64,000 bases of DNA from an uncultured Gemmatimonadales bacterium. Lineage in GTDB: Bacteria > Gemmatimonadota > Gemmatimonadetes > Gemmatimonadales > GWC2-71-9. The notes under the pieces were generated by a model. The model saw only the letters and a list, made by a program, of their open reading frames with translations, searched no databases and had not been told where the DNA came from. The stretch lies in contig CAWHFW010000002.1 of the NCBI GenBank assembly GCA_963828735.1, forward strand, positions 256,001 through 320,000. The letters run 5' to 3'. The translations under genes and the position numbers were made by a program. Shown piece after piece: positions 547 to 18,146 of this stretch; position 1 is the stretch's first letter, and each line of letters starts with the position of its first letter.

Positions 547-1101
547 CTATTCCAAGTCCGCGATGAACGGGAGATGACGGTAGTTCTCGGCGTGGTCGAG
601 TCCGTACCCGACCAGAAAGGCCGGTGGCGCCCGAAACCCGACGAACCGGAGCTCCGGGCGCACCTCCACCGCCAACTGCTTATCGAGGAGGGCACAGATC
701 GCCAGGCTCCTCGGCCGACGGGCACCGAGCAGCGTCATCAGGCGCTGCAGGGTCTTCCCGGTATCAATAATATCCTCAACCAGCAGAATATGTTTCCCCT
801 CGAGTCGTGTCTCGGGGTCGTACAGGAGCCGCACCGTGCCGCTCGACACCTTCCCCTTGCCGTAGGAGCTGGCGACCAGGAAATCCACCTGGATCGGACG
901 CTCGATGGTGCGCACCAGGTCGCTCAGGAAGATGAAGCTCCCTTTGAGCAGTCCGAGCACGAGGAGATCGCCGTCGGGGTAGGCCCCGGTGATCTCGGCG
1001 CCCAGCTCCTGCACCCTGGCCGCGATCGCCGCCTCGTCGTAGACGATGGACTTGACCGGCCGCCCTCCAGTGCGCTTCAGGACCTCAGGTGTGCTCAGCA
1101 T
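547..1101 (-). CDS. hpt: Hypoxanthine phosphoribosyltransferase
   Basis: LLKGSFIFLSDLVR, LLVEDIIDTGKT PRPP motif, FLVGYGLD; start chosen at MLSTPE. Confidence 0.96.
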   Translation of the reverse strand: MLSTPEVLKRTGGRPVKSIVYDEAAIAARVQELGAEITGAYPDGDLLVLGLLKGSFIFLSDLVRTIERPIQVDFLVASSYGKGKVSSGTVRLLYDPETRLEGKHILLVEDIIDTGKTLQRLMTLLGARRPRSLAICALLDKQLAVEVRPELRFVGFRAPPAFLVGYGLDHAENYRHLPFIADLE

Positions 1102-2407
1102 CGACGCGAACCGCCTCCTTGCCAGGTTCCGGAAGGAGGGCGTCGCTGCGGCTGACGCCCGGAATCCATACCACACCGTCGGGCCCCGCGAGCACCGGCC
1201 ACCGGGCGCGGCGGCTGCGCGGTACGCGCGCGTCTTGAAAGCAGCGAACCAAGAGCCGACGCCCCGACCCGCCCAAGGGGCGGATCCGCTCGCCGACGCT
1301 CCACGCGCGAACCACGAGCGGGGCGGCGGTGAACCAGGCCGTGATGCCGGCTCGTGCCTGTCGAGCGGGAGCCGGCTCGCGCGTCCAACGGAGCCGCCAG
1401 CGACCCCACGCGCCCTCGCCCTGGGCGCCCTCGAGCGACCACCCCGCCTGCGGCGCCGGCTCGTCGACCTGGCTCACCACGAGCCGGTCGAACGCCACCT
1501 CGGCCGCCCACCCCTCCCCCAGCGGCATCATGGCGCCGCTCGAGGCGCCGGCAGCGAGCCGGATGACGCGTCCTGCACACGCGGGTCCGAGGCGGTATCC
1601 GGCCCGTCTCGCCGCGCTCATCAAGACGGTCTCGGCCAGAGGTGAATCATACCCGTTGAGCGCACGGGCAGCAACGGAAAACCCGTCGCGCTCGAGACGA
1701 AAATCGAGGCCCGGAAGCAGGTCGATCACGGCGTTCCACGCCGCCCGGTCGCGGGCCGCGTGGCGGCCCAGGTGGAGCAGCGCGTCATCGACTCGGGGCA
1801 GGTGCGCTCGCAGAGCCGGCAGCACGTCCGCGCGGAGCCAGGAGCGGAAGTGACGCGGGTCAAAGTTGGCGGGGTCGACCCACGCCTCGAGACCCTCAGC
1901 CCGAACGTACGCGAGGATGGCCACGCGGCGGAACGGGAGGAGCGGGCGCACAAGCGTGCCACGGCGCGGCGCCATGCCGGCGAGCCCCGCGGGGCCGGAC
2001 CCCTCGAGCGCCCGCATGAGCACCGTCTCGATCTGATCGTCGGCGTGGTGGGCAGTGAAGATCAGGTGGGCGTCGAGGCGAGCGCGGGCGGCGTCGATCC
2101 ACTCGTAGCGCGCCGCACGCGCGGCCGTCTCCCCGGCGGCCGAGCCGAGCGCGCCCCGGCCCTCTTCGTACGGCAACCCGTATCGGCCCGCGAGCGTCCG
2201 CACGCGGGCCGCGACGTCCGCGCTGTCCGGATGGATTCCGTGGTCGAAGTGGGCGACGAGAAGCTCCTGTCGGTGCACGTCTGCCGTGGCATGCAGGAGG
2301 TGCAGGAGCGCGACGGAGTCGGGCCCGCCCGAGACCGCGACCAGCGCACGGCCCGGCGGTAGGCGGAGGCTCTCCAGATGGCGGCGGAAGTCGTCGGGAA
2401 ACGTCAT
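1085..2407 (-). CDS. tilS: tRNA(Ile)-lysidine synthetase
   Basis: VAVSGGPDSVALL PP-loop, TAHHADDQIET, RPLL; tilS-hpt-ftsH synteny. Confidence 0.95.
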   Translation of the reverse strand: MTFPDDFRRHLESLRLPPGRALVAVSGGPDSVALLHLLHATADVHRQELLVAHFDHGIHPDSADVAARVRTLAGRYGLPYEEGRGALGSAAGETAARAARYEWIDAARARLDAHLIFTAHHADDQIETVLMRALEGSGPAGLAGMAPRRGTLVRPLLPFRRVAILAYVRAEGLEAWVDPANFDPRHFRSWLRADVLPALRAHLPRVDDALLHLGRHAARDRAAWNAVIDLLPGLDFRLERDGFSVAARALNGYDSPLAETVLMSAARRAGYRLGPACAGRVIRLAAGASSGAMMPLGEGWAAEVAFDRLVVSQVDEPAPQAGWSLEGAQGEGAWGRWRLRWTREPAPARQARAGITAWFTAAPLVVRAWSVGERIRPLGGSGRRLLVRCFQDARVPRSRRARWPVLAGPDGVVWIPGVSRSDALLPEPGKEAVRVDAEHT

Positions 2408-2429: not shown

Positions 2430-4992
2430 TCAGTAGGCGAAGCCGGCCTGCAGGTAGAACGCCGTGCGGTCGTCCCCGCGTGCGATGGCGATGCTGATCG
2501 TGTTGGGCGGCCCCAGATACGCGAACCAGAAGCCACCGCCGACGCCGGTGTGCCACGTGTCGGACGATTCCCCCTCGAGGTACACCCGGCCCACATCGCC
2601 CAGTGCGAAGAGGCCGAAGTCACCGGGCAGGATCACGAAGTATCGGCCGAGCCGCGCGCGGAGCTCCGCGCTCCCGTACACCGCTGCGTCGCCGGCGTAC
2701 CGCTGTGTGATCACCCCGCGCACGTCGTCCGCTCCCCCGATGAAGGCGGCCTCGAAGAATGGGTATTGGCCCCACACCTTCTTTCCCCCAGCCGCAGGGC
2801 GAGCGTGGGGCCGAACGTCGTATTGGGCGTGAGGTAGGCCGATGCTTCGCCGTGAAGCTCGCCGAATGTCGAGTCCACGTCCCAGATGGCCGGGTAGACG
2901 CTGCCGCTCGCGAGTAGTCGGAATCCGTGTCGCGGAGCGCCGGGGACGTCGCGTGCATCCCATTCGGCCGTGGCAATCGCGCCCGCCCCGCCGAACTTGC
3001 CCACGCCATACGGCTGCGAGATGCCGATGAACCGTGCTGGATCGAGGTCGGTATTCGCGTACTTGAGGGCCGGCCCGACCGAGAAGGTTCCGGTGGCACC
3101 GAGCGGGAACACGACCGACGGCGCGATCAGGTATTGCTTCTGCGGGACCCGGTAGAACTCCTCGTCCTGTTCGATGCGCGTGGTCTCGTTCCCGAATCCG
3201 AAAAACCGCACGACCTCGATACCCGACGCGCGCAACATCACCGAGGTGCGGATCCGGGAGTTCACCCGGTAGAAGTCCCCCTGCAGCTCGGCGCGGAACG
3301 TCTCAGCGCCCGCCGCGTACCCGACGCTCGCGGCCAGTCGCGAGCGCAGCGGCCGTTTGCGGAACCCGAAGTTGTACCGGACTCCGCCGCCGCCGATGAA
3401 GAGGCCGACCTCGGGCCCGATGCTGAACCACGGGCGGAAGCGCCAGAACCCGCCCCAGTCACGCTCGGGGAACGGGGTCGAGTCGCTGGGACTGAAGTCG
3501 GCGAACGGCCGCGGATCGAGGGGCGGAGGATGCCGGCCCGCCGCTTCGTTGGTCCCACGCGCGTCGTAGAACCGGACGCGGCCGCCGCTGGAGGAATCCA
3601 CGACACGATCGTCTCCGCCCCCGCCGATCACGCGGAGCAGTGGCGCTTCCCCACCCTCCCCCGTGATGCGCACCGCGTCGTCACCACCGTGCAGGTACAG
3701 CCGCACCTCCTTGGTCTCGTCGCGGCTGAAGCGTCGATGGAACAGCGGCGATGCGCTTTCATGCGCCGGATACATCGCCACGTCCAGCGTCCGATCTCCC
3801 CGGAGGATCTCGACCCGGTCGGCCTTGTCGCTCGCGTAGACGTCCGGCTCGGCGGCGAGCACCCGGTAGAAGCGCCGCGCCGCCTCGGGCAGGTGATCGC
3901 GACGACTCCTGAGCGCGGCCGCGAGCCAGGTGCCGTTGCGATCGCGGAATTCGGGCGGCAGGTGTGCCACCGCGTCGTCGATCACCGTGTCGGTGATCAG
4001 GCCCTGCAGCTCCGTCGCGGCGGAGTCCCACACGGGCCACTCGAGGCCACTCAGGAGACGGCGGTCGAGCACGCGCGCGTTCCAGGTGAGCCCGACCATG
4101 CTGGGATAGTCGGGCGAGAACGCGACCAGCTGCGGAGCCGAGAGGCGTGCGAGGTCGAGCAGGAGGCCGTCGAATCGGGCGAAGGCCTGATCGCGGTCCC
4201 GCGGGATCGGCGTCCAGGGCACGGTGTCGGCATCCCCGAGTCGCGCCCACCGCCACTGATCCTGGTGGCGATCCCAGTCGCCCAGGAGCAGGTCGACGAG
4301 TCGGGCCGACAGGAAGGCTCGAACATCCGCGCGCTCGTCTTGATGCTTCTCGAGGCGGTCGAACAGCTCGTAGGTGCCGATGATCTTGTCTGCGCCGGCG
4401 AAGCCGGGACCCTTGTCCGTCTGACGCTCTTCGATCGTGCCGAGCAGGCCGCCGAAGACCGGGCGGAACTTGCCCAGCGAGGGATCGTCCGGGAGGAGCA
4501 CGAGCCGGGGGGACGTATGCACCACGTGCGCAGCGTCGAGAATAGGGCTCACCACGAGGGGCGCGGCGGGATGGCCGGCGCTCATCTGGTCCTGGAGGAT
4601 CTCCTGCACGACGGTGTGCTTGAGCTCAACGGGCAGCAGTGGCGATGGATCCTTGTCCAGCGAGCGAAACGCGTACTCGCGGCCGTCGCCACCCTTGAAG
4701 CGCAGCGACTTGGTCTGCTTGCCGCCCCCCGCTCGGTGGGCCGAAGGCCACCGGCGAAGCGACTCAGGTCGAGGATGGGCACGCGGACGGGCGTGGTCCA
4801 CAGGTCCCGATAGTGGCTGCCGAACAGCCAGCGGTGAAATCCGCCGGCGGCGTATTGGGCGCTCGGCGTGACCAGGGTGTCGTGCACGCCGAGGACCGTA
4901 TCCGAGGCGGCCTGCGCCGCGGCGGACCCGGCGTCTACCCCAGCGCCGGTCGCCAGCATGATCCCCAGGCGCCACCCCGTCAACCGGCCCAT
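2430..4992 (-). CDS. Omp85/BamA-TamA-type outer-membrane barrel protein with N-terminal kinase-like domain; two apparent frameshifts (~4730, ~2790)
   Basis: Signal-like N-terminus MGRLTGWRLGIMLATG; FGSHYRDLW; DWDRHQDQWRW; beta-strand C-terminus with VRG...RYAG loop motif ending FYLQAGFAY; pieces in ORFs 4582-7035, 2711-5266 and 2430-2963 join at C-homopolymers. Confidence 0.8.
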
Positions 4993-7900
4993 ACGAGCTC
5001 CTCCTCGACACTGTGGTCTGCCGCGATCGCCTGGGCCTGCGCCGTTGCGGGATCGCCGACCGCCAAACTCGTCCGTTGCCGATAGCTGCCGTCCGGTCCA
5101 AGCTCCCAGGCGGCGGGGTCCGCGAGCTCCTGGTCGAGTAGGCGCGCCAGCCTGCTCCGGCACCGGGCGTCGAGCACCGGGGCGGCGACCTCGACCCGAC
5201 GGCGGAGGTTCCGGGCTCGCCAGTCGGCCGAGGCGATGAAGTACTCGTCGGCACCCGCGTTCGCAAAGTGGTAGATGCGCGCGTGCTCCAGGAACCGGCC
5301 GACCAGGCTGCGCACCCGAATCCGCTCCGAGAGCCCCGCCACGCCCGGCTTGAGGGTGCACACGCCGCGCACCACGAGATCGATGTCCACCCCTGCCGAG
5401 GATGCCTCGTAGAGCGCGCGCACGATCTCCGCGTCGTCCAGTCCGTTCAGCTTGGCGCGGATCCGGCCGGGTCGCCCGGCCCGCGCGTGCTCGGCTTCCC
5501 GCGCGATCCGCTCCAGGAGCCCGCGCCGGAGATGCTCCGGCGCAACGAGGAGGCGGCGGAGCTCCGCGCCCGGCGCGCGCGACGTCCCGGTGAGCTGATT
5601 GAACAGGTCTCCGAGATCGTCGGCGATAGCGGGATCGGCGGTCAACAGACCCAGATCGGTATAGAACCGCGCCGTCGCCGCATTGTAGTTCCCGGTGCCG
5701 ATGTGCGCGTAGCGGCGGATCTCTCCCTCCTCCCGGCGCGCGACCAAGGCGACCTTCGCGTGATTCTTGAGTCCGACCACGCCGTACACCACCTGGGCGC
5801 CGGTTCGCTCGAGCTGCCGCACCCACCCGATGTTGCGCGCCTCGTCGTAGCTGGCCTTGAGCTCGATGAACGCCACGACCTCCTTCCCCGCCGCGGCGGC
5901 GCGAAGCAGAGCATTCACGATCGGTGAGTTCTCGCCGGTGCGGTAGAGCGTGAGCTTGACCGACACCACGGCGGGATCGTCCGCGGCCTCGTTGAGCAGT
6001 CGGAGGACGGTCGCCGAGAAGTCGTCGTAGGGATGATGCACCAGGCGGTCGCGCTCGGCGATTACCTGCCAGATCGAGCGGCCCGCCGGCATGGGGTCGC
6101 GACCCGCGAAGGGGGGAAACGCGCCGCCCGGCACGGGCAAGGCCGCGAGGTGCCGTAGGTCTCCCGGCGCCATGACGCCGCCGATCTCGTGGATCACGAG
6201 CTCGCCGGCCGCCGGCCCGCCCTCGAACCGGAGCTCCTGCACCAGCATGTCGCGCAGCACCTGCGAGGTCCCTTGCTCGAGCTCGACGCGCACGGCCGGG
6301 TTCACGGCGCGCTGGTCGAGCTCTTCCTCGATCGCCTGGAGCAAGTCGCCCGCGTCGGCGTCGTCGAGCTCCAGGTCGCCCCGGCGCGTCACACGGAACA
6401 GCACGGCCTCCTCGATGGTGCGATCGGGATACAACAGCGCCAGGTTGGCGAGCACGATGTCTTCGATGGGCACGAGGTCCCGGCCGCCCTCGAGCGCGAC
6501 GAACCGGGGCAATGCGGGCGGAATCCGGACGTACGCGAAATGTCGAGGCCCGGTCGCCTCGCTCTGCAGCGACACCGCGAGCGACAGGGTGAGCGCGGGG
6601 ATCAGGGGAAACGGGTGGCCCGGGCTCATCGTGATCGCGCGCGGCGTCAGCGCCGCGAAGAACTCCCGCCGAAACCGTGTCCGCAGCGCCTCCCGGTCGG
6701 TCTCCCGGAGGCCGTCCCAGCGCCTCAGTCGGTAGCCGTGCTCCGCGAGGCGCGCGAGGCAGTCGGCGATGGTGAACTGCTGGCGGGCGAGGAGCTCCTG
6801 CACGCGGGCCTCGACCGTGTCGCGTTCCGCCGACATGTAGTACTCGTCGAGGTTGGCGCTCACGATCGCGATGTATCGGAGCCGTTCGAGCAAGGGCGTG
6901 CGGTCGTCCTCCGCCAGGGCGAGGACGCGCGAGTTGAACTCGAGAAGGCTTCGGCGCGGTTCGAGCAGGTCCGCCGGTGTCGGTGTCTCCTCGAGCGGCG
7001 CGGCCGCGACGCCCGACTCCGCGCCGTCGGCCCACTCCGGCACCAGCGAGGACCGGGACGCCAGGCCGAACGCCGCCTGCGTGGCTGGATCGCGAAGCGA
7101 CGAGGTCCGGACGGCGCGCGCGAACTCCACGACCGGCATCCAGTCGACCCGGCGTTTATCCCTCGGCTCGAGCCCGCGACGCAGGCGCCGCGCGACCCAC
7201 ACCTCGAGACTCGGCTGCTCGATCGACGCGGTGGCGCGCCCGACGAGCACCAGATCCGCCACCCTCGTGCCGAACCATTCGGCGAGACCATGTCGCACGG
7301 CGTGTTCGCCGGCGCCCGGCGTGACGGGCAACCGAAGGCCCTGGCCATCCGTGAGGACGGCAACGCGGCCGTCATCCAGGACGATGACGGCCACGGCCCG
7401 GCCGAGGTCGAGGTTCCGGACCAGGCTTTCGCGACCCATCTGCCGGAGCAGCTCGCGCGCGCGCGCCATCTTGGTCTGCAGCACGGGGCGGAGTCCCCGG
7501 GACTGCTCCAGCGCGCGGGCCAGCTCCTCGAGGCGGGGGCCGCCCCGCTGCAGGCGGCGAACCTTGAGCTCCCGGAACTCCCGCGAGAGCGCGCCGTTCC
7601 GCACCGTCACCCGGTCGTACAGGAACGCGAACCGGCCGGGGAGCGGCCACGCGCGACCGGCAAGGCGCACGGTGCGCTCGATCTCGAGCTCGAAGCGCGG
7701 CTCGAGGCGGGCGGCGTCCACCAGGCCACGGAGACGTCGCGCGGGCTCGCTCGCCCCGCGGAGAATGGCGGGCAAGTCCACTTCCTCGGTGTTCGCCTCG
7801 AACACCTCGCGCGGGCCCGACACCGGCAGCCCCGGCTCCGCGAAGCCGAGCGTGAGTGTGCGGCGATCGTCCGCGCCGTAGCGGACGCGGCAGGTGATGC

Positions 7901-8060
7901 CCCGCGTGGCGAGGACGTTGTCACTGGTATCCACGTACACGTCGCGGTAGAGTCGGCGCTCGTTGTTTCGCTCACGGAGGCCCGCGGGGAGCGGCTCGGT
8001 CGCGAGCGTGGCCAGTAGCGCGGAGGTGGGAACGTCGCAGCGGAACTCGGCAGGCGGCAT
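4980..8060 (-). CDS. ppk1: Polyphosphate kinase 1 fused to N-terminal CYTH-like and Nudix-like domains
   Basis: FNSRVL, SANLDE, GHPFP, HHPYDDF, TLYRT, KNHAK (phospho-His), GTGNYN, GRFLEHAR, SADW..RNL..RVE; ~370 aa N-terminal extension with DVYVDTSDNVLATRGITCRVR. Confidence 0.9.
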   Translation of the reverse strand: MPPAEFRCDVPTSALLATLATEPLPAGLRERNNERRLYRDVYVDTSDNVLATRGITCRVRYGADDRRTLTLGFAEPGLPVSGPREVFEANTEEVDLPAILRGASEPARRLRGLVDAARLEPRFELEIERTVRLAGRAWPLPGRFAFLYDRVTVRNGALSREFRELKVRRLQRGGPRLEELARALEQSRGLRPVLQTKMARARELLRQMGRESLVRNLDLGRAVAVIVLDDGRVAVLTDGQGLRLPVTPGAGEHAVRHGLAEWFGTRVADLVLVGRATASIEQPSLEVWVARRLRRGLEPRDKRRVDWMPVVEFARAVRTSSLRDPATQAAFGLASRSSLVPEWADGAESGVAAAPLEETPTPADLLEPRRSLLEFNSRVLALAEDDRTPLLERLRYIAIVSANLDEYYMSAERDTVEARVQELLARQQFTIADCLARLAEHGYRLRRWDGLRETDREALRTRFRREFFAALTPRAITMSPGHPFPLIPALTLSLAVSLQSEATGPRHFAYVRIPPALPRFVALEGGRDLVPIEDIVLANLALLYPDRTIEEAVLFRVTRRGDLELDDADAGDLLQAIEEELDQRAVNPAVRVELEQGTSQVLRDMLVQELRFEGGPAAGELVIHEIGGVMAPGDLRHLAALPVPGGAFPPFAGRDPMPAGRSIWQVIAERDRLVHHPYDDFSATVLRLLNEAADDPAVVSVKLTLYRTGENSPIVNALLRAAAAGKEVVAFIELKASYDEARNIGWVRQLERTGAQVVYGVVGLKNHAKVALVARREEGEIRRYAHIGTGNYNAATARFYTDLGLLTADPAIADDLGDLFNQLTGTSRAPGAELRRLLVAPEHLRRGLLERIAREAEHARAGRPGRIRAKLNGLDDAEIVRALYEASSAGVDIDLVVRGVCTLKPGVAGLSERIRVRSLVGRFLEHARIYHFANAGADEYFIASADWRARNLRRRVEVAAPVLDARCRSRLARLLDQELADPAAWELGPDGSYRQRTSLAVGDPATAQAQAIAADHSVEEELVWAG

Positions 8061-8065
8061 ACCGC

Positions 8066-10504
8066 TCACTCTCCGATTGCGGCCCGCCGGGCCTTGAGGC
8101 GTTCCTCCGCGAGCGCGCGCGCTCGGGTGAACCCGGCCTGAAACTCCGGACGCGTCCACACTCGGTCGAACAAGCCGGACCGGAGCTGCCACTGATGCAG
8201 CATCGGGGAGTGCGCCAGCGCCCGCTCCAGCCAGGTCAGGGATTGGGCGGCATCGCCGCGCCAGGCGTAGTAGGCCGCGAGGTCAGCATACTGGTGCAGG
8301 AACGCGTAGCGCTCCGCATCGAGCTCGCCTCCAAGCGAATCGGCCAGGGCCGCGGCCTCCACGTTCCGTCCCAGTTGATGGAGGCACATCGCCCGGACGG
8401 CGACCCAGGGGCCAGGATCGTGGGCGGCGCACTCGGCTGCCTTACCCGAGAGAAGCTGTGCGTAGCCCTGAAGGACGGCCGAGACCGGATCCACGCCACC
8501 GCCGGGGAGCGCGGGCCGCACTTCGCGGAGCGCCACGTCGTAGCGGCGTGCGCCGATCGCGAGCGCAACCAGCGAGTGGCGCACCCCCGGCGCGAGAGGA
8601 TCCAGCGCGAGGCCGCGCCGGGCCTCCCTCAGCGCGGCATCGAGCTTCCCCTCGCGGAACAGGGCCCACGCGTAGGTCATGGCGATGTCGGCCGAGTTGG
8701 GCTTGAGGTGGCGCGCTCGCTCCGCGTCCGCCCGCACCGAATCCTCGGGAAGGAACGCGATCGAACGGGCGTCGGCCCTCGCGAGATAGCCCTCGGCGGC
8801 CATCGTATCCCGGGCCACCGCCCGCCCCGCCAGGCGGAGCGCCTCGGCGAGCTCGCCGTAGGGATCGGCCTCGCCGCGGTAGCCGTAGATGACGGCGTAG
8901 GTGTGCGCGGAGGCGAGCCCCGCGAGTGCCTGCGGGTAGTCGGCGTCCTGCGCGAGCGCTTCTTCGAAGGCACTCACGGCGAGTCGGAGGCCCTCCGGGG
9001 TCCGCCGCTGGAGCCAGTACACGCCCTTGAGATACGACTCGTACGCCGCGATCTGCGCGGTGCGCCGGGGCGCGGCCGGCATCGGCGCTCCGCCGCTCGA
9101 GGCGACCAGCGCGCCTGCGACCTGTCGGGCGATGGCGTCCTGCAGCTGGAGCAGCTGGCCCTCGCTCAGGCGGTAGGTCTCCTGCCAGAGCACGCGGTCG
9201 CGCCGCGCATCGAAGAGCTGCACGCGGGCCTCGATGCGCTCGCCCGTCCGCTCGAGCGAGCCGTCGAGGACATGGCGGACGTGGAGCGTGTCGGCCACCT
9301 GGCGCACCGTGAGCCGGTGGCCCTTGAGCGCGACGACCGAGGTCGGCGAGATCACCCGGAGGCCCTCCACCTGCGCCAGGCGGTCGATGATCTCGCGGCT
9401 CAGGCCGTCCCCGAGGTATTCGTCCTCGAGATTGTCGCTCCGGGTAGCGAGCGGAAGCACGGCAATCGTGGCGAGATCGTCGGGCGTGTCCGAAAGCGTG
9501 GCCCCGCCGCGTAAGCCGCGGAAGCGGGCGACGCCCAGCGCGACCAGGACGATCACCGCAGCCGCGACGAGGACGCGGCTCCAGATCGAGCCCGAGCCCG
9601 TCCGCTCGTTGCCCGGCAGCCGCCAGTCCGCCACTTCCGCGGGCGTCGGCGTGCTGAGCCGCGCGGGCTCCCCCATCTCGGCGCGAAGATCGGCCGCCAT
9701 GTCGCCGGCCGTCTGGTAGCGATCCTCCGGACGTTTGGCCAGCGCTCGATCGACGATCGCGAGGACGGCCGGCGTCACCTCGGGCCGCAGCTCGGCCACG
9801 GGCGTCGGCTTTCCCGCGGCCTGCTTGACGAGCACTTCGCGCAGGTTGGCGCCCCCGAAGGCCATCGTGCCTGTGAGCATCTCGTACAGTACGCATCCCG
9901 CGCCGTATACGTCGCTGCGGGGGTCGCCGCCTCCCCCGCCCTGCGCCTGCTCCGGACTCATGTAGGCGGCGGTCCCGATCGGCAGCCCGCGCGCGGTGAG
10001 GGAGTTGCCGCTGGCGAGCCCGATGGCGCGCGCGATGCCGAAGTCGGCCACCACCGCGTGGCCATTGGACAACAGGATGTTCTCCGGCTTGACGTCCCGG
10101 TGAACGATGCCCTGGCGATGGGCGTAGTCGAGCGCTTCGGTCACCTCGCGGCCGAGCAGGAGCGCCTCGTTCACCGGCAAGCGGCCGCTCAGGAGCCTCT
10201 CGCGGAGACTCTCACCGTCTACGAACGGCATCACGGAGTAGAGCAGGCCGGCGGCGTCACCCGAGTCGATCAGCGGAAGGATGTTCGGATGCTGGAGCTG
10301 GGCAGTGATGCGGATCTCGCGGAGGAACCGTTCGCCCGCGACGGAAGTCATGACGGTGGGGCTGAGCACCTTGATCGCGACTTCGCGGCCCAGCTTGCGG
10401 TCCCGTGCGAGGAAGACCGTCGCCATTCCGCCGCGCCCCGCCTCGCGCTCCACGACGTAGCGGTCACGAAGCGCGTCCTTGAGCCGCGACAGCAATTCGC
10501 TCAT
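8066..10504 (-). CDS. Hanks-type Ser/Thr kinase with TM segment, TolB-N-like domain and TPR-like repeats
   Basis: GRGGMATV, VAIK, HRDVKPEN, DFG, YMSPE; TIAVLPL...EYLGDGLSREII; helical repeats. Confidence 0.92.
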   Translation of the reverse strand: MSELLSRLKDALRDRYVVEREAGRGGMATVFLARDRKLGREVAIKVLSPTVMTSVAGERFLREIRITAQLQHPNILPLIDSGDAAGLLYSVMPFVDGESLRERLLSGRLPVNEALLLGREVTEALDYAHRQGIVHRDVKPENILLSNGHAVVADFGIARAIGLASGNSLTARGLPIGTAAYMSPEQAQGGGGGDPRSDVYGAGCVLYEMLTGTMAFGGANLREVLVKQAAGKPTPVAELRPEVTPAVLAIVDRALAKRPEDRYQTAGDMAADLRAEMGEPARLSTPTPAEVADWRLPGNERTGSGSIWSRVLVAAAVIVLVALGVARFRGLRGGATLSDTPDDLATIAVLPLATRSDNLEDEYLGDGLSREIIDRLAQVEGLRVISPTSVVALKGHRLTVRQVADTLHVRHVLDGSLERTGERIEARVQLFDARRDRVLWQETYRLSEGQLLQLQDAIARQVAGALVASSGGAPMPAAPRRTAQIAAYESYLKGVYWLQRRTPEGLRLAVSAFEEALAQDADYPQALAGLASAHTYAVIYGYRGEADPYGELAEALRLAGRAVARDTMAAEGYLARADARSIAFLPEDSVRADAERARHLKPNSADIAMTYAWALFREGKLDAALREARRGLALDPLAPGVRHSLVALAIGARRYDVALREVRPALPGGGVDPVSAVLQGYAQLLSGKAAECAAHDPGPWVAVRAMCLHQLGRNVEAAALADSLGGELDAERYAFLHQYADLAAYYAWRGDAAQSLTWLERALAHSPMLHQWQLRSGLFDRVWTRPEFQAGFTRARALAEERLKARRAAIGE

Positions 10505-11574
10505 CGGACCCCGTCGCCCAGCTCCACGCCGGTGACGTGCGGGGCCGCCTCGCTCCGCAGGCTCTGCACCAGGCTCTCCGCCGGCACGCTCTTCCGGAGA
10601 CGCACGCGGTACTGCAGCCGTTCGGCGGCCCCGCCCTCACCCGGCAAGGCCCGCACGAACTCCCAGCGCTTGGCGGACTGGTCCAGGACGGATTCCACGG
10701 CCCGTCGCGCGGCGTCCGCGGCGCCGTGGATCTGAAGCTCGAGGGGGCGGAGCTCGGGCGCCGGTTTCTTGACGACGACGACGTCGTCCTGCGAGGAACG
10801 CCGACGGCGTCGGGCCGCCCGGTCCGAGAGCGCGTCGAGCTGGTCCGGCGTGAGCGACTTGAGGATCTGATCGTCCACGAGCCGGACGAACGCGCTGGTG
10901 CGGTTCGAGAGCGCCAGGGCTCGCTGCAAACGCTTCTGCGCGACCGGTCGCCCCAGGTCGGCCGGCGCGCGACCGAAGTCGGTGTACCAGAGGATCAGGA
11001 TGATGACGTTGAACGTGATCGAGAGCGCTGCCGCGAGCGGCACCGACTGGATGCCCGCCGCCAGGCCGACGCCGGTGCCGAGGAAGATGTACACCGCGTC
11101 CTTCGTGTCCCGCAGGGTATTCCTGAAGCTCACCGCGGCGACGATGCCGCCCAGACTGAAGGCCAGGGCCAGGCTGTTCTTGACCATGAAGACGACGCCG
11201 GCCACGACGATCGGCAGGATGATGAGCGTCTGCACGACCGACTGACGGAACCCCTTCCGCCTCCTGGTCATTATGTAGATCCAGGTGACCGGGAGCATGA
11301 GCGCGAAGGCCGCGGTCATGCCGAACACCTCCGAGAGGGGAAGTCCGGCTTTGGTCTGAAAGAGGGGGGCCTGCGAGTTCAGGAGATCGGGAAGACCGGT
11401 GGGCGTGTCCACCACACTCGGCTGAAGGCCGCCCGAAAACAGCTCCTCCGCGCCCGGCACGAACTGGATGAGGAGCCCGGTGGCCGCGAACAACAGGATG
11501 TAGTAGGCGACGACCCGGACCATGGGGTTGTCCACCAGTCGGGTGAAGCCACTCGATGTGCGTTCAGTTGGCAT
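10501..11574 (-). CDS. DUF4956-family membrane protein
   Basis: VVFMVKNSLALAFSLGGIVAAVSFRNTLRDTKDAVYIF..TGVGLAAG signature; multiple TM helices; small C-terminal soluble domain. Confidence 0.85.
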   Translation of the reverse strand: MPTERTSSGFTRLVDNPMVRVVAYYILLFAATGLLIQFVPGAEELFSGGLQPSVVDTPTGLPDLLNSQAPLFQTKAGLPLSEVFGMTAAFALMLPVTWIYIMTRRRKGFRQSVVQTLIILPIVVAGVVFMVKNSLALAFSLGGIVAAVSFRNTLRDTKDAVYIFLGTGVGLAAGIQSVPLAAALSITFNVIILILWYTDFGRAPADLGRPVAQKRLQRALALSNRTSAFVRLVDDQILKSLTPDQLDALSDRAARRRRRSSQDDVVVVKKPAPELRPLELQIHGAADAARRAVESVLDQSAKRWEFVRALPGEGGAAERLQYRVRLRKSVPAESLVQSLRSEAAPHVTGVELGDGVR

Positions 11575-11619
11575 CGGCCGCCCTCCAATCGAGCGACGCG
11601 GGACCCAGAGGCGTTCGCA

Positions 11620-11647
11620 TTGACGGGCCTCGTCGATATGTTAGCGT
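11620..11647 (+). promoter_or_regulatory. Candidate sigma70 promoter for the divergent kinase operon
   Basis: TTGACG (11620-25) and extended -10 TGnTAGCGT (11639-47) in the divergent intergenic gap. Confidence 0.4.
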
Positions 11648-11702
11648 TCGACCACTAAATTGCGACGGTTCGGTAGTTTGCGCCACAGCCGGGAGCAAAT
11701 CG

Positions 11703-13316
11703 ATGATCCAGGCCGAGCTGCTGGAAACCCAACTGGCAAGCACGCCGACTGCCCCCTCCGGGGCCATGGTGGACGAGCTGCCGGACGACCTCCTCCGCGA
11801 GGCGACGCAGAGGCTCGGTATCCTGGCGCTCGTCTGGGCAGGCCTGTTCGCGATCGGGATCCTGATGAACGACCTGGTCGCGCCCCTCATGAATATCCCG
11901 ATGCGGGATCTCATTCCCTGGGGCCGGCCCGCGGACATCGTCGGAGTGCTGAGCATCAGCCTCTCCCTCTGGTTGTGGCGCTACACCCGGAAGCTGACCT
12001 GCCGGCCCCGGCTGGCGCTCGACCTCGCGCTGGGGTACGAGGTCCTGCTCGCCTTCGGGATCGGCGTCGTCAACCAGTGGGAGCCGCACCGTCTCCTCGC
12101 CGGCCGTCTGTCGTGGATCTGCGTGGTGGTCCTTCTCTTCCCCATGATCGTCCCCAACACGCCACGGAAGACGCTCATCGCCTCACTGATCGCGGCCTCG
12201 ATGGATCCCCTCGGGCTGCTGGTTGCGCACCTCCGGGGGCTCGAGACGCCGTCCTTCGCGCTGATCCTCTGGAACTATCTCCCCAACTACGTGTGCGCGC
12301 TCATCGCGGTCATCCCGTCCAAGATCATGGTGCGACTCGGCCGACAGGTCCAGCGGGCGCGCGAGCTCGGAAGCTACCGACTGACGGAGCTCATCGGGCG
12401 GGGCGGCATGGGCGAGGTGTGGCGCGCGACGCACCGGATGCTCGCCCGGCCCGCCGCGATCAAGCTCATCAAGCCCGAGATCCTGGGCGCGTCCACTGAC
12501 AACGCAACGGCCTCCATCATCCGACGGTTCCAGCGGGAGGCCGAGGCGGCGTCCGAGCTCCAGTCACCGCACACGATCCGGCTCTACGACTTCGGCCAGA
12601 CCCGGGCCGGGACGTTCTACTTCGCGATGGAACTGCTCGACGGGCTGGATCTGGAGACGCTGATCCGCCGCTATGGCCCCGTGCCGCCCGAGCGGGTGGT
12701 CGATCTGCTCCGCCAGACATGCCACTCGCTCGGCGAGGCTCACGACCGCGGGCTGGTCCACCGCGACGTCAAGCCGGCCAACATCTATGCCTGCCGCCTC
12801 GGTCGAGAATACGACTTCGTCAAGGTGCTGGATTTCGGCCTGGTGAAGTACGACCAGGACGAATCCATCCTCGACACCATCAATGCCGCCGAGGTGACGA
12901 CCGGCACCCCAGCCTACATGGCGCCCGAGATGGCGAGCGGGGCCGACCCGGTGGACCGGCGCGCCGACATCTACGCGCTCGGGTGCGTGGGTTACTGGCT
13001 GCTGACCGGCCAGATGGTGTTCGAGGCGGAGAGCCCGCTCAAGATGCTCATCCAGCACATCCAGGCGATCCCGGTTCCTCCCAGCATCCGGACGGGTCGC
13101 CCCGTGCCGCTGGACCTGGAGCGGGTGATCATGCGATGCCTCGAGAAGGATCCGACGCGCCGCCCGCAAACGGCCGACGATCTGGTGGCGGAGCTGGATC
13201 GCGTCGTCCTGGAGCAGCCGTGGGACCAGACTCAGGCGCGGGCGTGGTGGCAGAAGCACCTGGAGCCGACGACGGGACGGGCGCCAGCCCCGCAGCTGGC
13301 AGTCGCCGTCGGGTGA
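11703..13316 (+). CDS. Membrane Ser/Thr kinase (N-terminal multi-TM region, C-terminal kinase)
   Basis: About six TM helices then IGRGGMGEV, AAIK, HRDVKPAN, DFG, YMAPE. Confidence 0.92.
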   Translation: MIQAELLETQLASTPTAPSGAMVDELPDDLLREATQRLGILALVWAGLFAIGILMNDLVAPLMNIPMRDLIPWGRPADIVGVLSISLSLWLWRYTRKLTCRPRLALDLALGYEVLLAFGIGVVNQWEPHRLLAGRLSWICVVVLLFPMIVPNTPRKTLIASLIAASMDPLGLLVAHLRGLETPSFALILWNYLPNYVCALIAVIPSKIMVRLGRQVQRARELGSYRLTELIGRGGMGEVWRATHRMLARPAAIKLIKPEILGASTDNATASIIRRFQREAEAASELQSPHTIRLYDFGQTRAGTFYFAMELLDGLDLETLIRRYGPVPPERVVDLLRQTCHSLGEAHDRGLVHRDVKPANIYACRLGREYDFVKVLDFGLVKYDQDESILDTINAAEVTTGTPAYMAPEMASGADPVDRRADIYALGCVGYWLLTGQMVFEAESPLKMLIQHIQAIPVPPSIRTGRPVPLDLERVIMRCLEKDPTRRPQTADDLVAELDRVVLEQPWDQTQARAWWQKHLEPTTGRAPAPQLAVAVG

Positions 13317-14182
13317 GACGCTGCGTCCTGCGGCGCGCGCTTCCCACGGCGCTCGTGGTCACCGCCGTCGCGGGGACGGTCGCGACCGCGGGAGCGCCCG
13401 AGAGCCTGCTCGCGAGGTATGACCTCACGGCGCCGCCGGCAGGCCGCTGGAAGCTGCCGAAGGAGCTCAACGAGATCAGCGGCCTCGCGATGGAGGGGAG
13501 TCGACTGTTTGCGCACGGCGACGAGCAGGCCATCGTCTATGAGCTCGACCCCGCCTCGCATACCGTGGTCCGCCGGTTCTCGCTCGGCCAGCCCGCGGTC
13601 CGCGGCGACTTCGAGGCGATCGCGGTGGTGCACGACCGCGTGTTCCTCACCACCAGTGACGGCGACCTGTACGCCGCGTCGATCGGCGCCGACGGCGCGG
13701 CGGTCCCGTACGAGCGTTTCGTGACGGGGATCGGACGAAGCTGCGAGGTGGAAGGGCTGGCGTACGACCCGAAGGGACGCGAGTTCCTGTTCGGCTGCAA
13801 GACGCCGCGCGTGCGTGCGCTCCACGGGCGGCTCGCGGTGATCGGCTGGTCCCCGGAGCGACGCGAGGCGCCCGTGCTGCGCCTCGGCATTCCGATCGCC
13901 ACGGTCGAGGACCTCGAGGGGGAAGCGGTGGCACCGTCGGAGCTGCTGCGGGACCCATCGAGCGGGCACCTGCTGTTGCTGGCGGCGCGGGCGCGCGTGA
14001 TCGTCGAGGTGACGCCAGAGGGCGGAGTGGTCGCGGTCGCGAAGCTCCGTCACTCGCTGCACCGCCAGGCCGAGGGTCTCGCGATCGGCGCGGACGGCTC
14101 GCTGCTCGTCGCCGATGAGGCCGCCGGTGAGCATCCGATGCTCACGCGCTACGCACCGCGTCCGGCGTCCCGCGCCCCGTGA
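13313..14182 (+). CDS. Exported SdiA-regulated/YjiK-like beta-propeller protein
   Basis: Signal peptide; LNEISGL, AHGDE, GDFEAI, EVEGLAYD, QAEGLAI, LLVADE blade motifs; GTGA overlap with kinase stop. Confidence 0.8.
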   Translation: MRRCVLRRALPTALVVTAVAGTVATAGAPESLLARYDLTAPPAGRWKLPKELNEISGLAMEGSRLFAHGDEQAIVYELDPASHTVVRRFSLGQPAVRGDFEAIAVVHDRVFLTTSDGDLYAASIGADGAAVPYERFVTGIGRSCEVEGLAYDPKGREFLFGCKTPRVRALHGRLAVIGWSPERREAPVLRLGIPIATVEDLEGEAVAPSELLRDPSSGHLLLLAARARVIVEVTPEGGVVAVAKLRHSLHRQAEGLAIGADGSLLVADEAAGEHPMLTRYAPRPASRAP

Positions 14183-14189
14183 GCTCCTG

Positions 14190-15431
14190 CTAGGGGCGAA
14201 CCGGTCGCACCACGGCTGACCGCGCGCTGTCCGGGGGCGCGCACCCGTTCGCCCAGGTGTTCGCCGGCGGCAGCACCTGGGCGTAGATCTCGCGCGGCTC
14301 CCCCGTTGCCGACACCGTTACCACGCCCAGCCGCAGCCCACCGTCCCGCAGCAGATCCGCCCGCATGAAGCCGCCCGTCGAGAGCGCCAGCCGGGTCTCG
14401 GGGATCTCCTCCACGTAGCTCTGGTGTCCCAAAATCCCTACGCCACTGACCGCGAGCAACGGCGGCCGTCCGCGATCGAGGATCTGGAGGGTGTGCTCGT
14501 GGCCTGCTGCATAGAGCGCCGGCGGCCGGCATGCGAACGCGCTGTCCAGTGCCGCGCGTAGCGCCCGGTAGGCGGCGGAGTTCACGTCTTCCGAGCTGAT
14601 GCCGGCACCGCGGAGGGCAGGATAGATCGTGCCGATGATCGGCAGGGGGATGTAGAGCGCCGGGTGCAGGGCACGGAGGGGGAAGATGTAGTCGCCGGGC
14701 GAGAAGTATCCGCCGTGCGGACCTGCCGTGAGGATCGGATGGTGGCCGGCGACGATCACCTGCCGGCCGGATGATTCCGCGAGAATCCGTGCGATCGCCC
14801 GCCGGACCTCGCGGTCTGTCTTGGCGGGACATGCGGAGCCTTCCCCGGGTTTCTCGTGCGGGAAGAGCCACCACTCCGTGTCGAGGAGCACGAGTCGCAG
14901 GCCGCTCGAGACGTCCACGATCTCCGGACCCGGGCAGCCGTCCGCCGGAAGCATGCGGGCTCGCCCGCCGCCCTCCCGGGCAATAAGGCTGCCCTGACGG
15001 CGGATGCGAGCGAGCCCGTCGGATCCCGATTTCTGCCAGTCGTGATTGCCGGGGATGAAGACGGTCGGCGCGTCGTGTGCGAGGGCGAGCTGCGCCTCGA
15101 GCCGTCGAAGCGCCTCCGGATACGAGGGATCGGTGCTGTCCGGCACCCCGTAGTCGTACACATTGTCGCCGAGGAACAGGATGATGGTCGAATCCGGCCG
15201 GCCGACGAGTGAGCGCTTGACCCCCTGCAGCACCGGCTCTCCCGAAGCTTTCGGAGCCCCGGCGTCGCCGATGAGGATGACGCTCGCCACCACGTCCCCA
15301 CGCGCGGGCGGGGGGGCCGTGGACGCGGGAATGACGTGCGCGGAACAGGCCGCGAGCGCGATCGTCGGCAGGGTGCGCGCGGCGACGCGCCAGGAGAAAC
15401 GAGCGAAAGGGCTGGGGATGGAGTTCTTCAG
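14190..15431 (-). CDS. Calcineurin-like metallophosphoesterase, probable lipoprotein (start uncertain: CTG 15431 or GTG 15293)
   Basis: LIGDAG, FLGDNVY, PGNHDW, GHHP, AGHEH motifs; open upstream frame contains lipobox IALAAC. Confidence 0.88.
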   Translation of the reverse strand: MKNSIPSPFARFSWRVAARTLPTIALAACSAHVIPASTAPPPARGDVVASVILIGDAGAPKASGEPVLQGVKRSLVGRPDSTIILFLGDNVYDYGVPDSTDPSYPEALRRLEAQLALAHDAPTVFIPGNHDWQKSGSDGLARIRRQGSLIAREGGGRARMLPADGCPGPEIVDVSSGLRLVLLDTEWWLFPHEKPGEGSACPAKTDREVRRAIARILAESSGRQVIVAGHHPILTAGPHGGYFSPGDYIFPLRALHPALYIPLPIIGTIYPALRGAGISSEDVNSAAYRALRAALDSAFACRPPALYAAGHEHTLQILDRGRPPLLAVSGVGILGHQSYVEEIPETRLALSTGGFMRADLLRDGGLRLGVVTVSATGEPREIYAQVLPPANTWANGCAPPDSARSAVVRPVRP

Positions 15432-15723
15432 GCCGGGCGGCCCAGGTGGAGGGCCCGTAGGGTGCGCCAGTACATCGCAATCATCGCAGTGGTGCTATCG
15501 CGTTGTTATCACGTGGCTTGGCATTGGTGTTATAAAGGTGTTTAGAGGTCAAGGCGGCCTCCCTAGAGCGATCGATGACAATCCACTTGAGGCATTGGTG
15601 GCAGCATGCGACGCGCAGGAGACTCCCCCAGCCTGGGGGCGGCGCGAAATTCAAGGTGGCTTCGCTCTGCCCCAGGGCCCTGGACTTTGACCTGCCGAGC
15701 CCCTGCCCCAGGATGACTGCTAG

Positions 15724-15966
15724 CTACCGGCGCCCGTCGGACAACCTGCTGACGTGGCCTCCCGGCCGGATAGTGGAACCGCCCCTGAACTCGAAGTGCT
15801 CGTCGGAAAGCAGCCTCCCCTTGAGCAACCCAGCGTACCCGTGCTGCGCAAGGATCCGGTCGGCTACCCGACTCGCGGCGCTCGCGGCCGCCTCCCAGCC
15901 TGCACGGAGCTCGGGATAGACGTGGGCGAATCCTGGCCGGATCCGCGCCTCACGGCTCAGTCCCAC
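15724..15966 (-). CDS. Small hypothetical protein
   Basis: REARIRPGFAHVYPEL...LLSDEHFEFRGG; co-directional just downstream of the NTF2-like gene. Confidence 0.55.
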   Translation of the reverse strand: MGLSREARIRPGFAHVYPELRAGWEAAASAASRVADRILAQHGYAGLLKGRLLSDEHFEFRGGSTIRPGGHVSRLSDGRR

Positions 15967-15988
15967 TCGCTCCTCCCGCCTGAAATCG

Positions 15989-16552
15989 CTATCCTGGTCG
16001 AGCCGTCCCCGGCGTGGCCGGCGGGACCGGATTGTAATGAAGATGCGCGACCCGCCACCGTTGACCATCCCGAACCCACACTTCGGTGTACCGCGTGAGC
16101 GCGGGCCGCGGCTCGCCGGGAATGTCGTACCGTATCAGGCCGCTGACGACCGCCACGGTGCCGTATAGCCGGACGCTCGTCTCCTCGAACTGGCTCGGCG
16201 CCACGCCTCCGGTATCCGCCTGGATGGCCGCGAGGAACTGCGGCTTGTTCAGGGAGCCGCGACCACCGGTGAGCTGAAAGTTGTCGACCAACGTCGCCGA
16301 GAAGAACGCGGTATCCCGATTCGCCAATGCCTGGATCCACCGCGCGTGCAGCCCCGCGATGTCCTGGGCCGCCTCCATGCTGACTTTGGCCGTACTGTCG
16401 CCGAGGACCGGCGGGGCGTCGGTTCGGGCGGTTTGAGGTGCCCCACAAGCGGCCACCATCGCCACCAGGCCGGCCATGCGGAATCCCGACGCTCGGACCG
16501 CACCACGGCCCGCCGTGCCGAGGTCGCTGCGAACGACCGATGGTTGGCTCAT
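15989..16552 (-). CDS. NTF2-like (DUF4440) lipoprotein
   Basis: Lipobox VAAC; VRLYGTVAVVSG...RYTEVWVRDGQRWRVAHLH. Confidence 0.85.
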   Translation of the reverse strand: MSQPSVVRSDLGTAGRGAVRASGFRMAGLVAMVAACGAPQTARTDAPPVLGDSTAKVSMEAAQDIAGLHARWIQALANRDTAFFSATLVDNFQLTGGRGSLNKPQFLAAIQADTGGVAPSQFEETSVRLYGTVAVVSGLIRYDIPGEPRPALTRYTEVWVRDGQRWRVAHLHYNPVPPATPGTARPG

Positions 16553-16627
16553 GGGACGGATTGTACCGCGCCACGGGCGCTCGCGCTATGCGCCTCAGGA
16601 TGACCACGTGTGCGCCTGCGCCGCCGC

Positions 16628-16804
16628 TCAGTGCGTGATCAGCACGTTCGCGATCACGAGGTACTCGACGAGCACCACGGTCCACAAGACGACCCTGCGG
16701 AAATTGACCGGACGAATGAGGGAGTTGCACAGGGAGCAGATGCGTGCCCCTGGGGGGGCGGACAACCCACAGCGTGGGCAGGAAATCGACGGCGAGGTAC
16801 TCAT
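16628..16804 (-). CDS. 58-aa zinc-ribbon membrane microprotein
   Basis: Manual translation MSTSPSISCPRCGLSAPPGARICSLCNSLIRPVNFRRVVLWTVVLVEYLVIANVLITH*: CxxC...CxxC plus C-terminal TM. Confidence 0.7.
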   Translation of the reverse strand: MSTSPSISCPRCGLSAPPGARICSLCNSLIRPVNFRRVVLWTVVLVEYLVIANVLITH

Positions 16805-16870
16805 AGCAACAACCAGTCCGCGGACATGGAGGGGTCGACAAAGTTCAAGATAGGTCAGCGGACGGCGCCG

Positions 16871-17287
16871 TCAACCGTGTGGCTGTTTGATCTCCTGGGC
16901 CTCGTGCGACGAGCCGACGAGCAGGTGCTGGACGGCCCTCAAGAGTCCGCCTGGGGTGAAGGGCTTTTCGAGAAGCTGCCCCGGAACGTCACTCCCTGCG
17001 CTGAATCCCGAAATGAAGCGGATGGGAGGGGGACGCTGGCAACTCCCAAGCGCTCGGGCCAAGGCGAGCCCATCGACGTCCGGCATGCGCACGTCCGTCA
17101 CCACCGCCGCGACCTCTCCTCCGGCCACATCGAAGAGCGTCAACGCTTCCCGTCCATCAGCAGCCTCGAGCACGCGGTAGCATTCCCCGAGCACGTCGGC
17201 CATCAGGCGACGCAGCAGCGGCTCGTCGTCGACGACGAGAACGAGCGGCCGGAATCGGTCGGCCCCGGAATCGAAAGGGAAGCCCAT
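16871..17287 (-). CDS. Single-domain response regulator (REC)
   Basis: VLVVDDE, VVTDVRMP, ISG, KPF. Confidence 0.88.
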   Translation of the reverse strand: MGFPFDSGADRFRPLVLVVDDEPLLRRLMADVLGECYRVLEAADGREALTLFDVAGGEVAAVVTDVRMPDVDGLALARALGSCQRPPPIRFISGFSAGSDVPGQLLEKPFTPGGLLRAVQHLLVGSSHEAQEIKQPHG

Positions 17288-17349
17288 GCCGCAACTTATC
17301 GAGGTTGAGCCACCGTCTGTAGGTCGCTTCTACGACCGCCGAGCGGGAA

Positions 17350-17907
17350 TCAGCGCCGCGTCATTCTCTGGCGGATCTGCCTCAACGTGTTCATGAGCTC
17401 GCCGAATCTGGCTTGGTGTTTTCTTGCGATCGCGTGTTGCCATGCGGCGAGTGAACGCGTTTCGGCGGCATCGGCCCGCATCTGCTGTGCGCGCCGCTTC
17501 ATCGCTCGCGACCTGACGACCAGCGGCGCGACCGCCCCGGTCAGCTCCTCCGCACCGAACGGCTTGTGAAGGAGGGGCACCGGCGGGAGGTCGGGTGGCA
17601 GTTGAGCCAACGCCGACATGGCCACGACCGGCAATCCTGGGCAGCACTCCAGGAGTACCGAGATCAGTTCCGGGCCGGATATGCCCGGCATCGCCAGGTC
17701 TGTGACGACCGCGTCGAGCACCTGGGCCTCGTCCCGCGCGATCACACGAAGGGCCTCCTCGCCGTCACCGGCCTCGACCACGGAGGTCCCCTCGACCTCG
17801 ATCATCCGTCGCAGTGCTCGGCGCACGAACGAATCATCGTCCACGAGGAGCAAAGTGGCCCCGTCGGGGATCCGGAAGCACGCGGGATGGGTATTCACAA
17901 CAGTCAT
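17350..17907 (-). CDS. Response regulator (REC plus C-terminal helical extension)
   Basis: LLLVDDD, VVTDLAMP, AMS, KPF. Confidence 0.85.
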   Translation of the reverse strand: MTVVNTHPACFRIPDGATLLLVDDDSFVRRALRRMIEVEGTSVVEAGDGEEALRVIARDEAQVLDAVVTDLAMPGISGPELISVLLECCPGLPVVAMSALAQLPPDLPPVPLLHKPFGAEELTGAVAPLVVRSRAMKRRAQQMRADAAETRSLAAWQHAIARKHQARFGELMNTLRQIRQRMTRR

Positions 17908-18146
17908 GAAACGCCGCCCATGAAACGCCGCCGAATCGAACTGCCGCGACGACCTCGTTACCACCTGACAACGCGGGACACTGTGAGCACGCTCACGCTC
18001 GGAAAAACTGGGTGGCTCGAGCGGCCGAACTGGGCTGTCACTAAGCAAGTCCCACCATGCGGTGCCACTCACACTGCGGGGTGCGCATCGCGCTGCCGAA
18101 CGCAGGAAACCACTTGAACGCTCCTGTTCAAGTGGTGAGGCTCAAA

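Follow-up and report, generated by a model that had tools for sequence, protein, structure and literature searches.

A conserved candidate envelope module in Gemmatimonadota: an Omp85 barrel with a kinase-like domain, a phosphatase-like partner and putative phosphoryl-donor genes

Introduction

Several described systems come close to the gene cluster that we analyse here. The 'Metallo' subfamily of Omp85 proteins is defined by a PF00149 domain together with an Omp85 barrel, the PF00149 domain being called a metalloprotease (Heinz and Lithgow 2014, PMC4104836). In PlpD, a patatin-Omp85 protein, an enzyme domain sits on an Omp85 barrel and was shown to stay periplasmic (PMC11116518). A triad of DUF4956, VTC and CotH has been noted beside pel genes (bioRxiv 10.1101/768473), and the role of the NTT-HEAT carriers of free-living bacteria has been left open (PMC5381601). 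Our cluster lies in a window of 64,000 nt (contig CAWHFW010000002.1, G000:C2:256001-320000) from an uncultured Gemmatimonadales bacterium whose genome comprises 4.78 Mb in 7 contigs, and near-identical DNA is contained in soil and rhizosphere sequencing runs. Its seven genes encode a DUF4956 protein, two Hanks-type Ser/Thr kinases, a CYTH-Nudix-PPK1 fusion, a barrel protein with a kinase-like domain, a beta-propeller and a metallophosphoesterase. While its parts resemble gene arrangements already catalogued, we found no published description of the whole system in the open-access literature, and our analysis points to an envelope module that is real, conserved and apparently unpublished, the mechanism of which we infer.

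Results

Coordinates and profile searches bear out the initial annotation as to the seven genes, their families, their order and their tight coupling. The five genes that carry our argument, with the domains discussed below, are:

2430..4992, minus strand: Omp85-family barrel protein, about 853 aa when intact (Omp85_fam below cut-off, E 5e-10; BamA-type barrels, E 1e-11 to 1e-5)
3700..4900, minus strand: kinase-like domain of the barrel protein, PI4K-II/CotH/CtkA/HipA/Fam20 clade (model, Foldseek, VIA-align, conservation)
4253-4279, minus strand: catalytic-loop motif D-W-D-R-H-x-D-Q-W of the kinase-like domain (conservation, 106 sequences)
4980..8060, minus strand: fusion of CYTH/TTM (aa 1-207), Nudix-fold (aa 218-345) and PPK1 domains, 1026 aa (profiles and folds)
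10501..11574, minus strand: DUF4956 inner-membrane protein with at least 4 hydrophobic segments and a C-terminal soluble part; joins both sub-modules
13313..14182, plus strand: exported SdiA-regulated (YjiK-like) beta-propeller with invariant acidic residues (3qqz, E 3e-11)
14190..15431 (15431 approximate), minus strand: purple-acid-phosphatase-like metallophosphoesterase, predicted lipoprotein, start uncertain (purple acid phosphatase motifs; N-terminal half of 'Metallo' Omp85)

Within each gene run, neighbours overlap or are spaced by 4-13 nt. On the minus strand DUF4956 overlaps a Ser/Thr kinase-TolB/TPR gene by 4 nt, a 5-nt gap leads to the fusion and the fusion overlaps the barrel gene by 13 nt; on the plus strand a membrane kinase and the propeller overlap by 4 nt, and the phosphoesterase is convergent to the propeller with 7 nt between them.

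The barrel protein consists of a signal peptide, an atypical kinase domain, a Gly/Asp-rich repeat linker and a C-terminal barrel. An Omp85-type barrel is indicated by the family profile, which leads to BamA-type barrels, and by PF01103 on homologues, the below-cut-off match to NCBIfam Omp85_fam having been obtained with the window fragment as query. We modelled the kinase domain from an intact homologue about 70% identical to the window barrel (predicted local distance difference test score, pLDDT, 93.7). This homologue model aligns with PI4KII-alpha (Z 14.3, root-mean-square deviation (rmsd) 4.2, 248 aligned) and with CotH (Z 14.3, rmsd 4.3, 255 aligned), and further with CtkA (Z 13.2), HipA (11.1) and Fam20 (10.8); Foldseek matches the domain to CtkA at E 1.5e-5, and atlas similarity to the CotH family is 0.76 only. 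Across 106 barrel-kinase sequences the catalytic-loop Asp and Arg are invariant (106/106), the following Gln, the beta-3 Arg, the beta-3 Lys and the metal-site Asp are each retained in 105, and the Gly-rich loop, hinge Glu, D-R-H-x-D-Q loop and downstream Asp are kept in 97-106, which leaves the Gly-rich loop, catalytic Asp and metal-binding Asp/Asn of a kinase conserved; the residue roles are those that we presume from motif analogy rather than from superposition. The model thus agrees with the kinase-like domain first proposed and shows a PI4K-II/CotH/Fam20-type fold, whose relatives include lipid, glycan and protein kinases, and we read the domain as a putatively active kinase. A signal peptide precedes it in relatives, and by analogy with PlpD it most likely faces the periplasm.

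In close relatives the barrel gene is one intact frame of 850-900 aa; in the assembly this frame is broken at 4724 and at 2784, each time by the loss of 1 base within a run of G. Independent short-read contigs restore the base at 4724 in 3/4 DNA runs and at 2784 in 2/4, and since the contigs mend both deletions and relatives are intact, we take the frameshifts to be assembly errors and reject the possibility of a pseudogene. The motif of the kinase occurs in an estimated ~6200 stretches of a species-level genome set; no viral relative was found with a divergent barrel kinase as query. The studied genome encodes a barrel kinase once more (G000:C5:714896-717400), in an intact gene that is 42% identical and has no cluster partners beside it, and tandem pairs occur in L087, L090, L098, L104, L126 and L184, often with a propeller, phosphoesterase or PAP2 gene between them.

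The initial annotation missed a relation between the two ends of the cluster. The N-terminal 340 aa of the barrel protein gave 2291 matches to longer proteins, the best 120 of which are 1170-1370 aa long, and the phosphoesterase aligns with the N-terminus of all of these best 120 (median 34% identity, E 1e-55), which makes phosphoesterase and barrel the halves of what is elsewhere a single protein; the domain between them has no Pfam match. All five purple-acid-phosphatase metal motifs, including the Tyr ligand, are invariant in 45 phosphoesterase sequences (G9-D10, G42-D43-N44-Y46, G82-N83-H84-D85, H184-H185, G264-H265-H267), and the best solved relatives are TRAP/PAP enzymes. The gene had been described as a convergent lipoprotein metallophosphoesterase: it is convergent, but the lipoprotein reading requires a CTG start at 15431, no ATG, GTG or TTG lying in frame upstream of the lipobox in 15350-15431 and short-read contigs having no indel there. 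In relative L039 an ATG is present at about the corresponding position. The Riemerella MPPE, an enzyme secreted by the type IX system (PMC13595192), was considered and not linked to the phosphoesterase family.

One draw of 151 phylum genomes, the studied genome included, was searched gene by gene, with 'near' meaning within 12 kb; many assemblies are fragmented, so that counts of near genes are lower bounds, and kin are not independent. The barrel kinase occurs in 50 genomes, DUF4956 in 64, the fusion in 30, the phosphoesterase in 30 and the propeller in 20. Every phosphoesterase genome has the barrel (30/30, at least 24 near), and the propeller goes with the barrel in 19/20 (at least 17 near) and with DUF4956 in 20/20 (at least 17 near), while the fusion accompanies DUF4956 in 27/30 (at least 25 near) and the barrel in 18/30 (at least 12 near). 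All five non-Hanks genes co-occur in 11 genomes, in 7 of which they all lie near the barrel, a clustering far above chance. However, 32/50 barrel genomes lack the fusion and 12/30 fusion genomes lack the barrel, and because each so often occurs without the other, the cluster is two sub-modules joined by DUF4956 rather than the single seven-gene system first supposed, linked as its genes are in relatives. DUF4956 stands beside barrel and propeller in many genomes (22/33 within 12 kb), in several with no fusion nearby, and gene order differs between loci.

The clustering, which the initial annotation had proposed to follow across phyla, recurs in Gemmatimonadota and, in part, in Myxococcota. In two Myxococcota loci a barrel gene of fused length is followed in series with propeller and DUF4956 genes, and 9/201 genomes from the phylum of a Myxococcales locus hold the barrel kinase. 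Outside Gemmatimonadota we compared 41 loci, mostly Ignavibacteria and Bacteroidota, from the best-scoring 80 of 594 confirmed; the neighbours of the barrel there are HD-PycTM (23), propeller (19), phosphoesterase (16, 12 of them fused), canonical ppk1 (8), SixA (6) and PAP2 (6). The commonest of these neighbours, an HD plus Pycsar-type membrane protein (L097:12621-13868 and 22 further loci), is often accompanied by ppk1, SixA and class III cyclases; its role may be that of a third partner in the inner membrane and not that of a defence effector.

These neighbours bear on an explanation in terms of phosphate scavenging, in which the barrel would admit organic phosphates or nucleotides, phosphatase and propeller would free phosphate within the periplasm, DUF4956 or NTT carriers would bring the products into the cell, the fusion would store the phosphate as polyphosphate, and the kinase fold would be a nucleotide-binding gate or sensor. 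The purple-acid-phosphatase-like phosphoesterase, a weak phytase-like match of the propeller (E 1e-5), the ppk1, SixA and PAP2 genes at 8/41, 6/41 and 6/41 of the loci just described and the known direction of NTT transport, which is import (PMC5381601), are all consistent with it. We nevertheless regard this explanation, taken as a whole, as rather unlikely: several phyla retain the full set of kinase catalytic residues, for which a passive gate would have no use, 20/50 barrel genomes have no phosphoesterase, and a Pho-box-like pattern was at chance, with 2 matches where 2.1 are expected and neither of them in the cluster, a weak test for Gemmatimonadota.

The initial annotation saw CYTH and Nudix domains ahead of PPK1, and fold matches bear this out. 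The tunnel domain aligns with YgiF (Z 14.6, rmsd 3.6, 193 aligned; E 1e-10) better than with Vtc4 (Z 11.0, E 3e-6), and the Nudix domain aligns with 2yvm (Z 14.7, rmsd 2.4, 122 aligned). In the alignment rows that cover ExExK, which we take to be the CYTH/TTM metal motif, the first Glu is absent and the Lys is mostly Arg, and the Nudix box retains its Gly, Glu and Arg while the later, presumably catalytic, glutamates are not conserved. Both domains keep basic residues, the tunnel without its first acidic ligand, and this combination suggests a role in binding rather than hydrolysis. The PPK1 part scores 643.7 bits against TIGR03705 (cut-off 465.85), has four domains and retains both catalytic histidines (His435/His592). 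In the window clade of fusions the PPK1 N domain has a 27-aa deletion, and Ser replaces R405 of E. coli; each change is found in 12/17 fused rows, two duplicate pairs included. Arg is present at 405 in 7/8 unfused PPK1 rows, and the N-domain Arg is kept in 8/15 readable fusions phylum-wide (30 loci examined). Outside the cluster the genome has another ppk1 (G000:C2:434244-435919) that is not fused; it spans several frames, probably through assembly indels, which fits an indel-prone assembly; similar ppk1 frame splits occur in the long-read relatives L035, L061 and L062. For DUF4956, a complex prediction with the CYTH-Nudix region scored 0.00 and was counted neither for nor against, and an MgtC-like protein is suggested as a lead, no more, by one atlas cluster in which that family makes up 10%. 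A second DUF4956 gene (G000:C2:690550-691280) stands alone without cluster partners.

The lineages without the fusion provide a different view of the donor. TLC/NTT ATP/ADP-carrier homologues lie beside the barrel in 15/120 loci, several of them short contigs and one pair a duplicate, and DUF4956, ppk and the propeller are found in none of those 15. An NTT query matched 40 of the 151 genomes, of which we kept a high-scoring group of 17 (E < 1e-100) and set aside 23 as distant. All 17 genomes of this NTT-HEAT group hold the barrel, 11 with the two genes within 12 kb and 9 with the carrier directly downstream, and none holds the fusion or the propeller. Among the 50 barrel genomes 18 have the fusion and 17 the NTT, with none having both (6.1 expected) and 15 neither; within the genus of the studied genome, the fusion occurs in 6 genomes and the NTT in 5. 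In the studied genome a protein query found no NTT, a PF03219 profile search being uninformative as no control matched. In the kinase-domain tree the Gemmatimonadota NTT loci group in a single clade (support 0.91). Outside it lies a barrel from Myxococcota that is directly followed by TLC/HEAT genes, so that the NTT-barrel association represents at least two events, not seventeen.

It had been proposed that polyphosphate is what the kinase uses, and the carrier homologues in 17 barrel genomes without a fusion weaken this, since they point to a nucleotide donor. In its fullest form the proposal would have PPK1 make polyphosphate, the tunnel domain thread it through DUF4956 as in eukaryotic VTC, and the barrel kinase consume it. 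In 25/30 genomes no more than 12 kb separates the fusion from DUF4956, VTC-DUF4956-CotH neighbourhoods occur in the same phylum (compare bioRxiv 10.1101/768473), the tunnel has kept its basic residues, and Vtc4 is among its fold matches. Against these stand the closer resemblance of the tunnel to YgiF/CYTH than to Vtc4, the pairing of the same kinase family with ATP/ADP-carrier homologues within the genus of the studied genome, and the several genomes in which DUF4956 adjoins barrel and propeller with no fusion nearby, so that we think this route unlikely. It is also conceivable that DUF4956 and the fusion serve cytoplasmic polyphosphate turnover while barrel, phosphatase and propeller form an independent envelope unit, the two being clustered through phosphate status. 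Each set does occur without the other, their order is shuffled between loci, and barrel and DUF4956 have lone paralogues in the studied genome; but DUF4956 keeps company with barrel and propeller, in Myxococcota as well, and the exclusion between NTT and fusion would be difficult to account for if the two units had no role in common, which makes such independence improbable.

The remaining genes at the locus are:

1085-2407, minus strand: tilS, 22 nt downstream of the barrel gene
8066..10504, minus strand: Hanks Ser/Thr kinase with one transmembrane helix and a TolB-like/TPR part, a probable local passenger (1 of 25 such loci in the genome)
11703..13316, plus strand: membrane Ser/Thr kinase with about 5 transmembrane segments and a Hanks domain (1 of 5 paralogues)

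The genome holds 89 Hanks kinase loci, 25 with a TolB/TPR part and 5 with a membrane N-terminus, and full-length orthologues of the two kinases flank the cluster mainly in the genus of the studied genome and at few other loci, not across phyla; within the genus the membrane kinase adjoins the barrel in both DUF4956 and NTT variants. We therefore do not count them as core members, and control by two Hanks kinases, part of the initial annotation, is possible and finds no support here. Likewise, the gene run does continue into tilS after 22 nt in the window, but barrel and tilS are 1.5-5.4 kb apart in 7/7 distinct loci of relatives where both occur, and tilS was rejected as a cluster member because this spacing is not conserved. 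Hanks kinases and tilS are thus probably local passengers rather than core parts. In close relatives (L041:11840-14788 and others) a DUF4118-GAF-PAS hybrid histidine kinase gene lies between barrel and tilS, unlike in the window.

RNA contigs from 4 soil metatranscriptomes cover the cluster in short pieces only, at depth 2-5, and show neither transcription nor an operon; a promoter scan gave 0 sites, and terminators were at chance level. Past the phosphoesterase, window positions 15500-22000 look like a variable region, with GC content down to 61-67%, a DUF4440 gene and small receiver-domain-like genes, including near-duplicates at 17350-18072 and 21374-21772.

Discussion

How could an exported kinase work? 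The usual view is that the periplasm contains no ATP, and an exported kinase would therefore need a donor supply line. We tentatively favour a model, in which our confidence is somewhat short of even, of an outer-membrane-anchored periplasmic kinase/phosphatase fed by interchangeable donor-supply modules, with ATP as donor. The Omp85 barrel that the kinase carries would hold it in the outer membrane, and the kinase would face the periplasm, with phosphatase and propeller as predicted partners; the kinase would write, and the phosphatase erase, phosphate on an envelope substrate, be it a lipid or glycan head group or a protein. DUF4956 would provide the export route for the phosphoryl donor, the fusion would bind polyphosphate through its degenerate tunnel and Nudix folds while PPK1 regenerates ATP at the membrane, and in sister lineages NTT-type ATP/ADP carriers would do the same job. 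Because one of the two swapped modules belongs to a nucleotide-carrier family, ATP appears slightly likelier than polyphosphate as the donor; that a donor, one or the other, is supplied in some form we consider somewhat more likely than not.

A number of observations weigh against this model. Fifteen of the 50 barrel genomes have neither the fusion nor the NTT clade, and 12 of the 30 fusion genomes have no barrel. Within Gemmatimonadota the association with NTT amounts in essence to a single clade, so that the exclusion reflects few events and a naive P value overstates it. The barrel kinase has Arg where most kinases carry the canonical beta-3 Lys. The PPK1 of the window clade lacks two conserved arginines, which we take to contact ATP or polyphosphate, and because of this loss its activity is uncertain. 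No solved relative of DUF4956 was found, and we know of no transport function for the family. Finally, the characterised NTTs import ATP rather than export it (PMC5381601).

More generally, several Gram-negative phyla may share an outer-membrane kinase/phosphatase switch fuelled by donor export through either NTT or DUF4956 plus the fusion, a generalisation that we put forward cautiously, as somewhat short of evenly balanced. If it is true, then DUF4956, the NTT-HEAT proteins of free-living bacteria and the 'Metallo' subfamily of Omp85 would gain one shared function, and the DUF4956-VTC-CotH clusters would be explained in the same way. A model of this kind would imply a new kind of envelope chemistry, with roles for three uncharacterised families, and the locus names candidates for the kinase, the eraser and the donor supply.

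How, then, does the cluster compare with the systems from which we started? It had been said that DUF4956 genes sit beside VTC and CotH, and classical neighbourhoods of this kind are indeed present in the phylum, which makes the analogy a sound one: of the genomes drawn, 10 have VTC and 10 have CotH, and VTC, a distant DUF4956 and CotH occur together in six (G070, G138, G152, G163, G175, G183). Both arrangements group DUF4956, a TTM-fold protein and an exported kinase fold of the CotH clade; in the window, however, a CYTH-like TTM domain forms one chain with Nudix and PPK1, a barrel anchors the kinase, and the DUF4956 protein, which matches VTC-linked copies at E about 1e-6 to 1e-13, falls in a distant subfamily. 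The suggestion that fusion and barrel kinase stand in for VTC and CotH agrees with the studied genome, where neither VTC (PF09359, control matched in 3/14 genomes) nor CotH (PF08757, control matched in 4/14) was found, but less well with three genomes in which a VTC gene and the fusion coexist, so that the replacement is not a strict one. The cluster thus parallels the DUF4956-VTC-CotH triad without belonging to it.

The fusion has the C1/C2 core of bacterial PPK1 (1XDO) with both catalytic histidines, here joined to the degenerate tunnel and Nudix domains, and the tunnel fold of the CYTH triphosphatase YgiF (5A60), here with a degenerate metal motif. The NTT-HEAT proteins of free-living bacteria have the same architecture as the genes beside the barrel in relatives, and the available part of their description mentions no barrel-kinase neighbour (PMC5381601). 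Compared with PlpD, the barrel here carries a kinase-like domain instead of a lipase, attached by Gly/Asp-rich repeats, and a kinase requires an energy donor. The cluster also resembles the 'Metallo' Omp85 proteins: in fused proteins of 1170-1370 aa, one end aligns with the phosphoesterase of the window and the other with its barrel. In the window the PF00149 domain lies in a separate gene 9 kb away, whereas it is fused in 12/41 loci outside Gemmatimonadota; moreover, this domain is phosphatase-like here and the middle domain has a kinase fold, and in the available portion of the paper that defined the subfamily no kinase is mentioned (PMC4104836).

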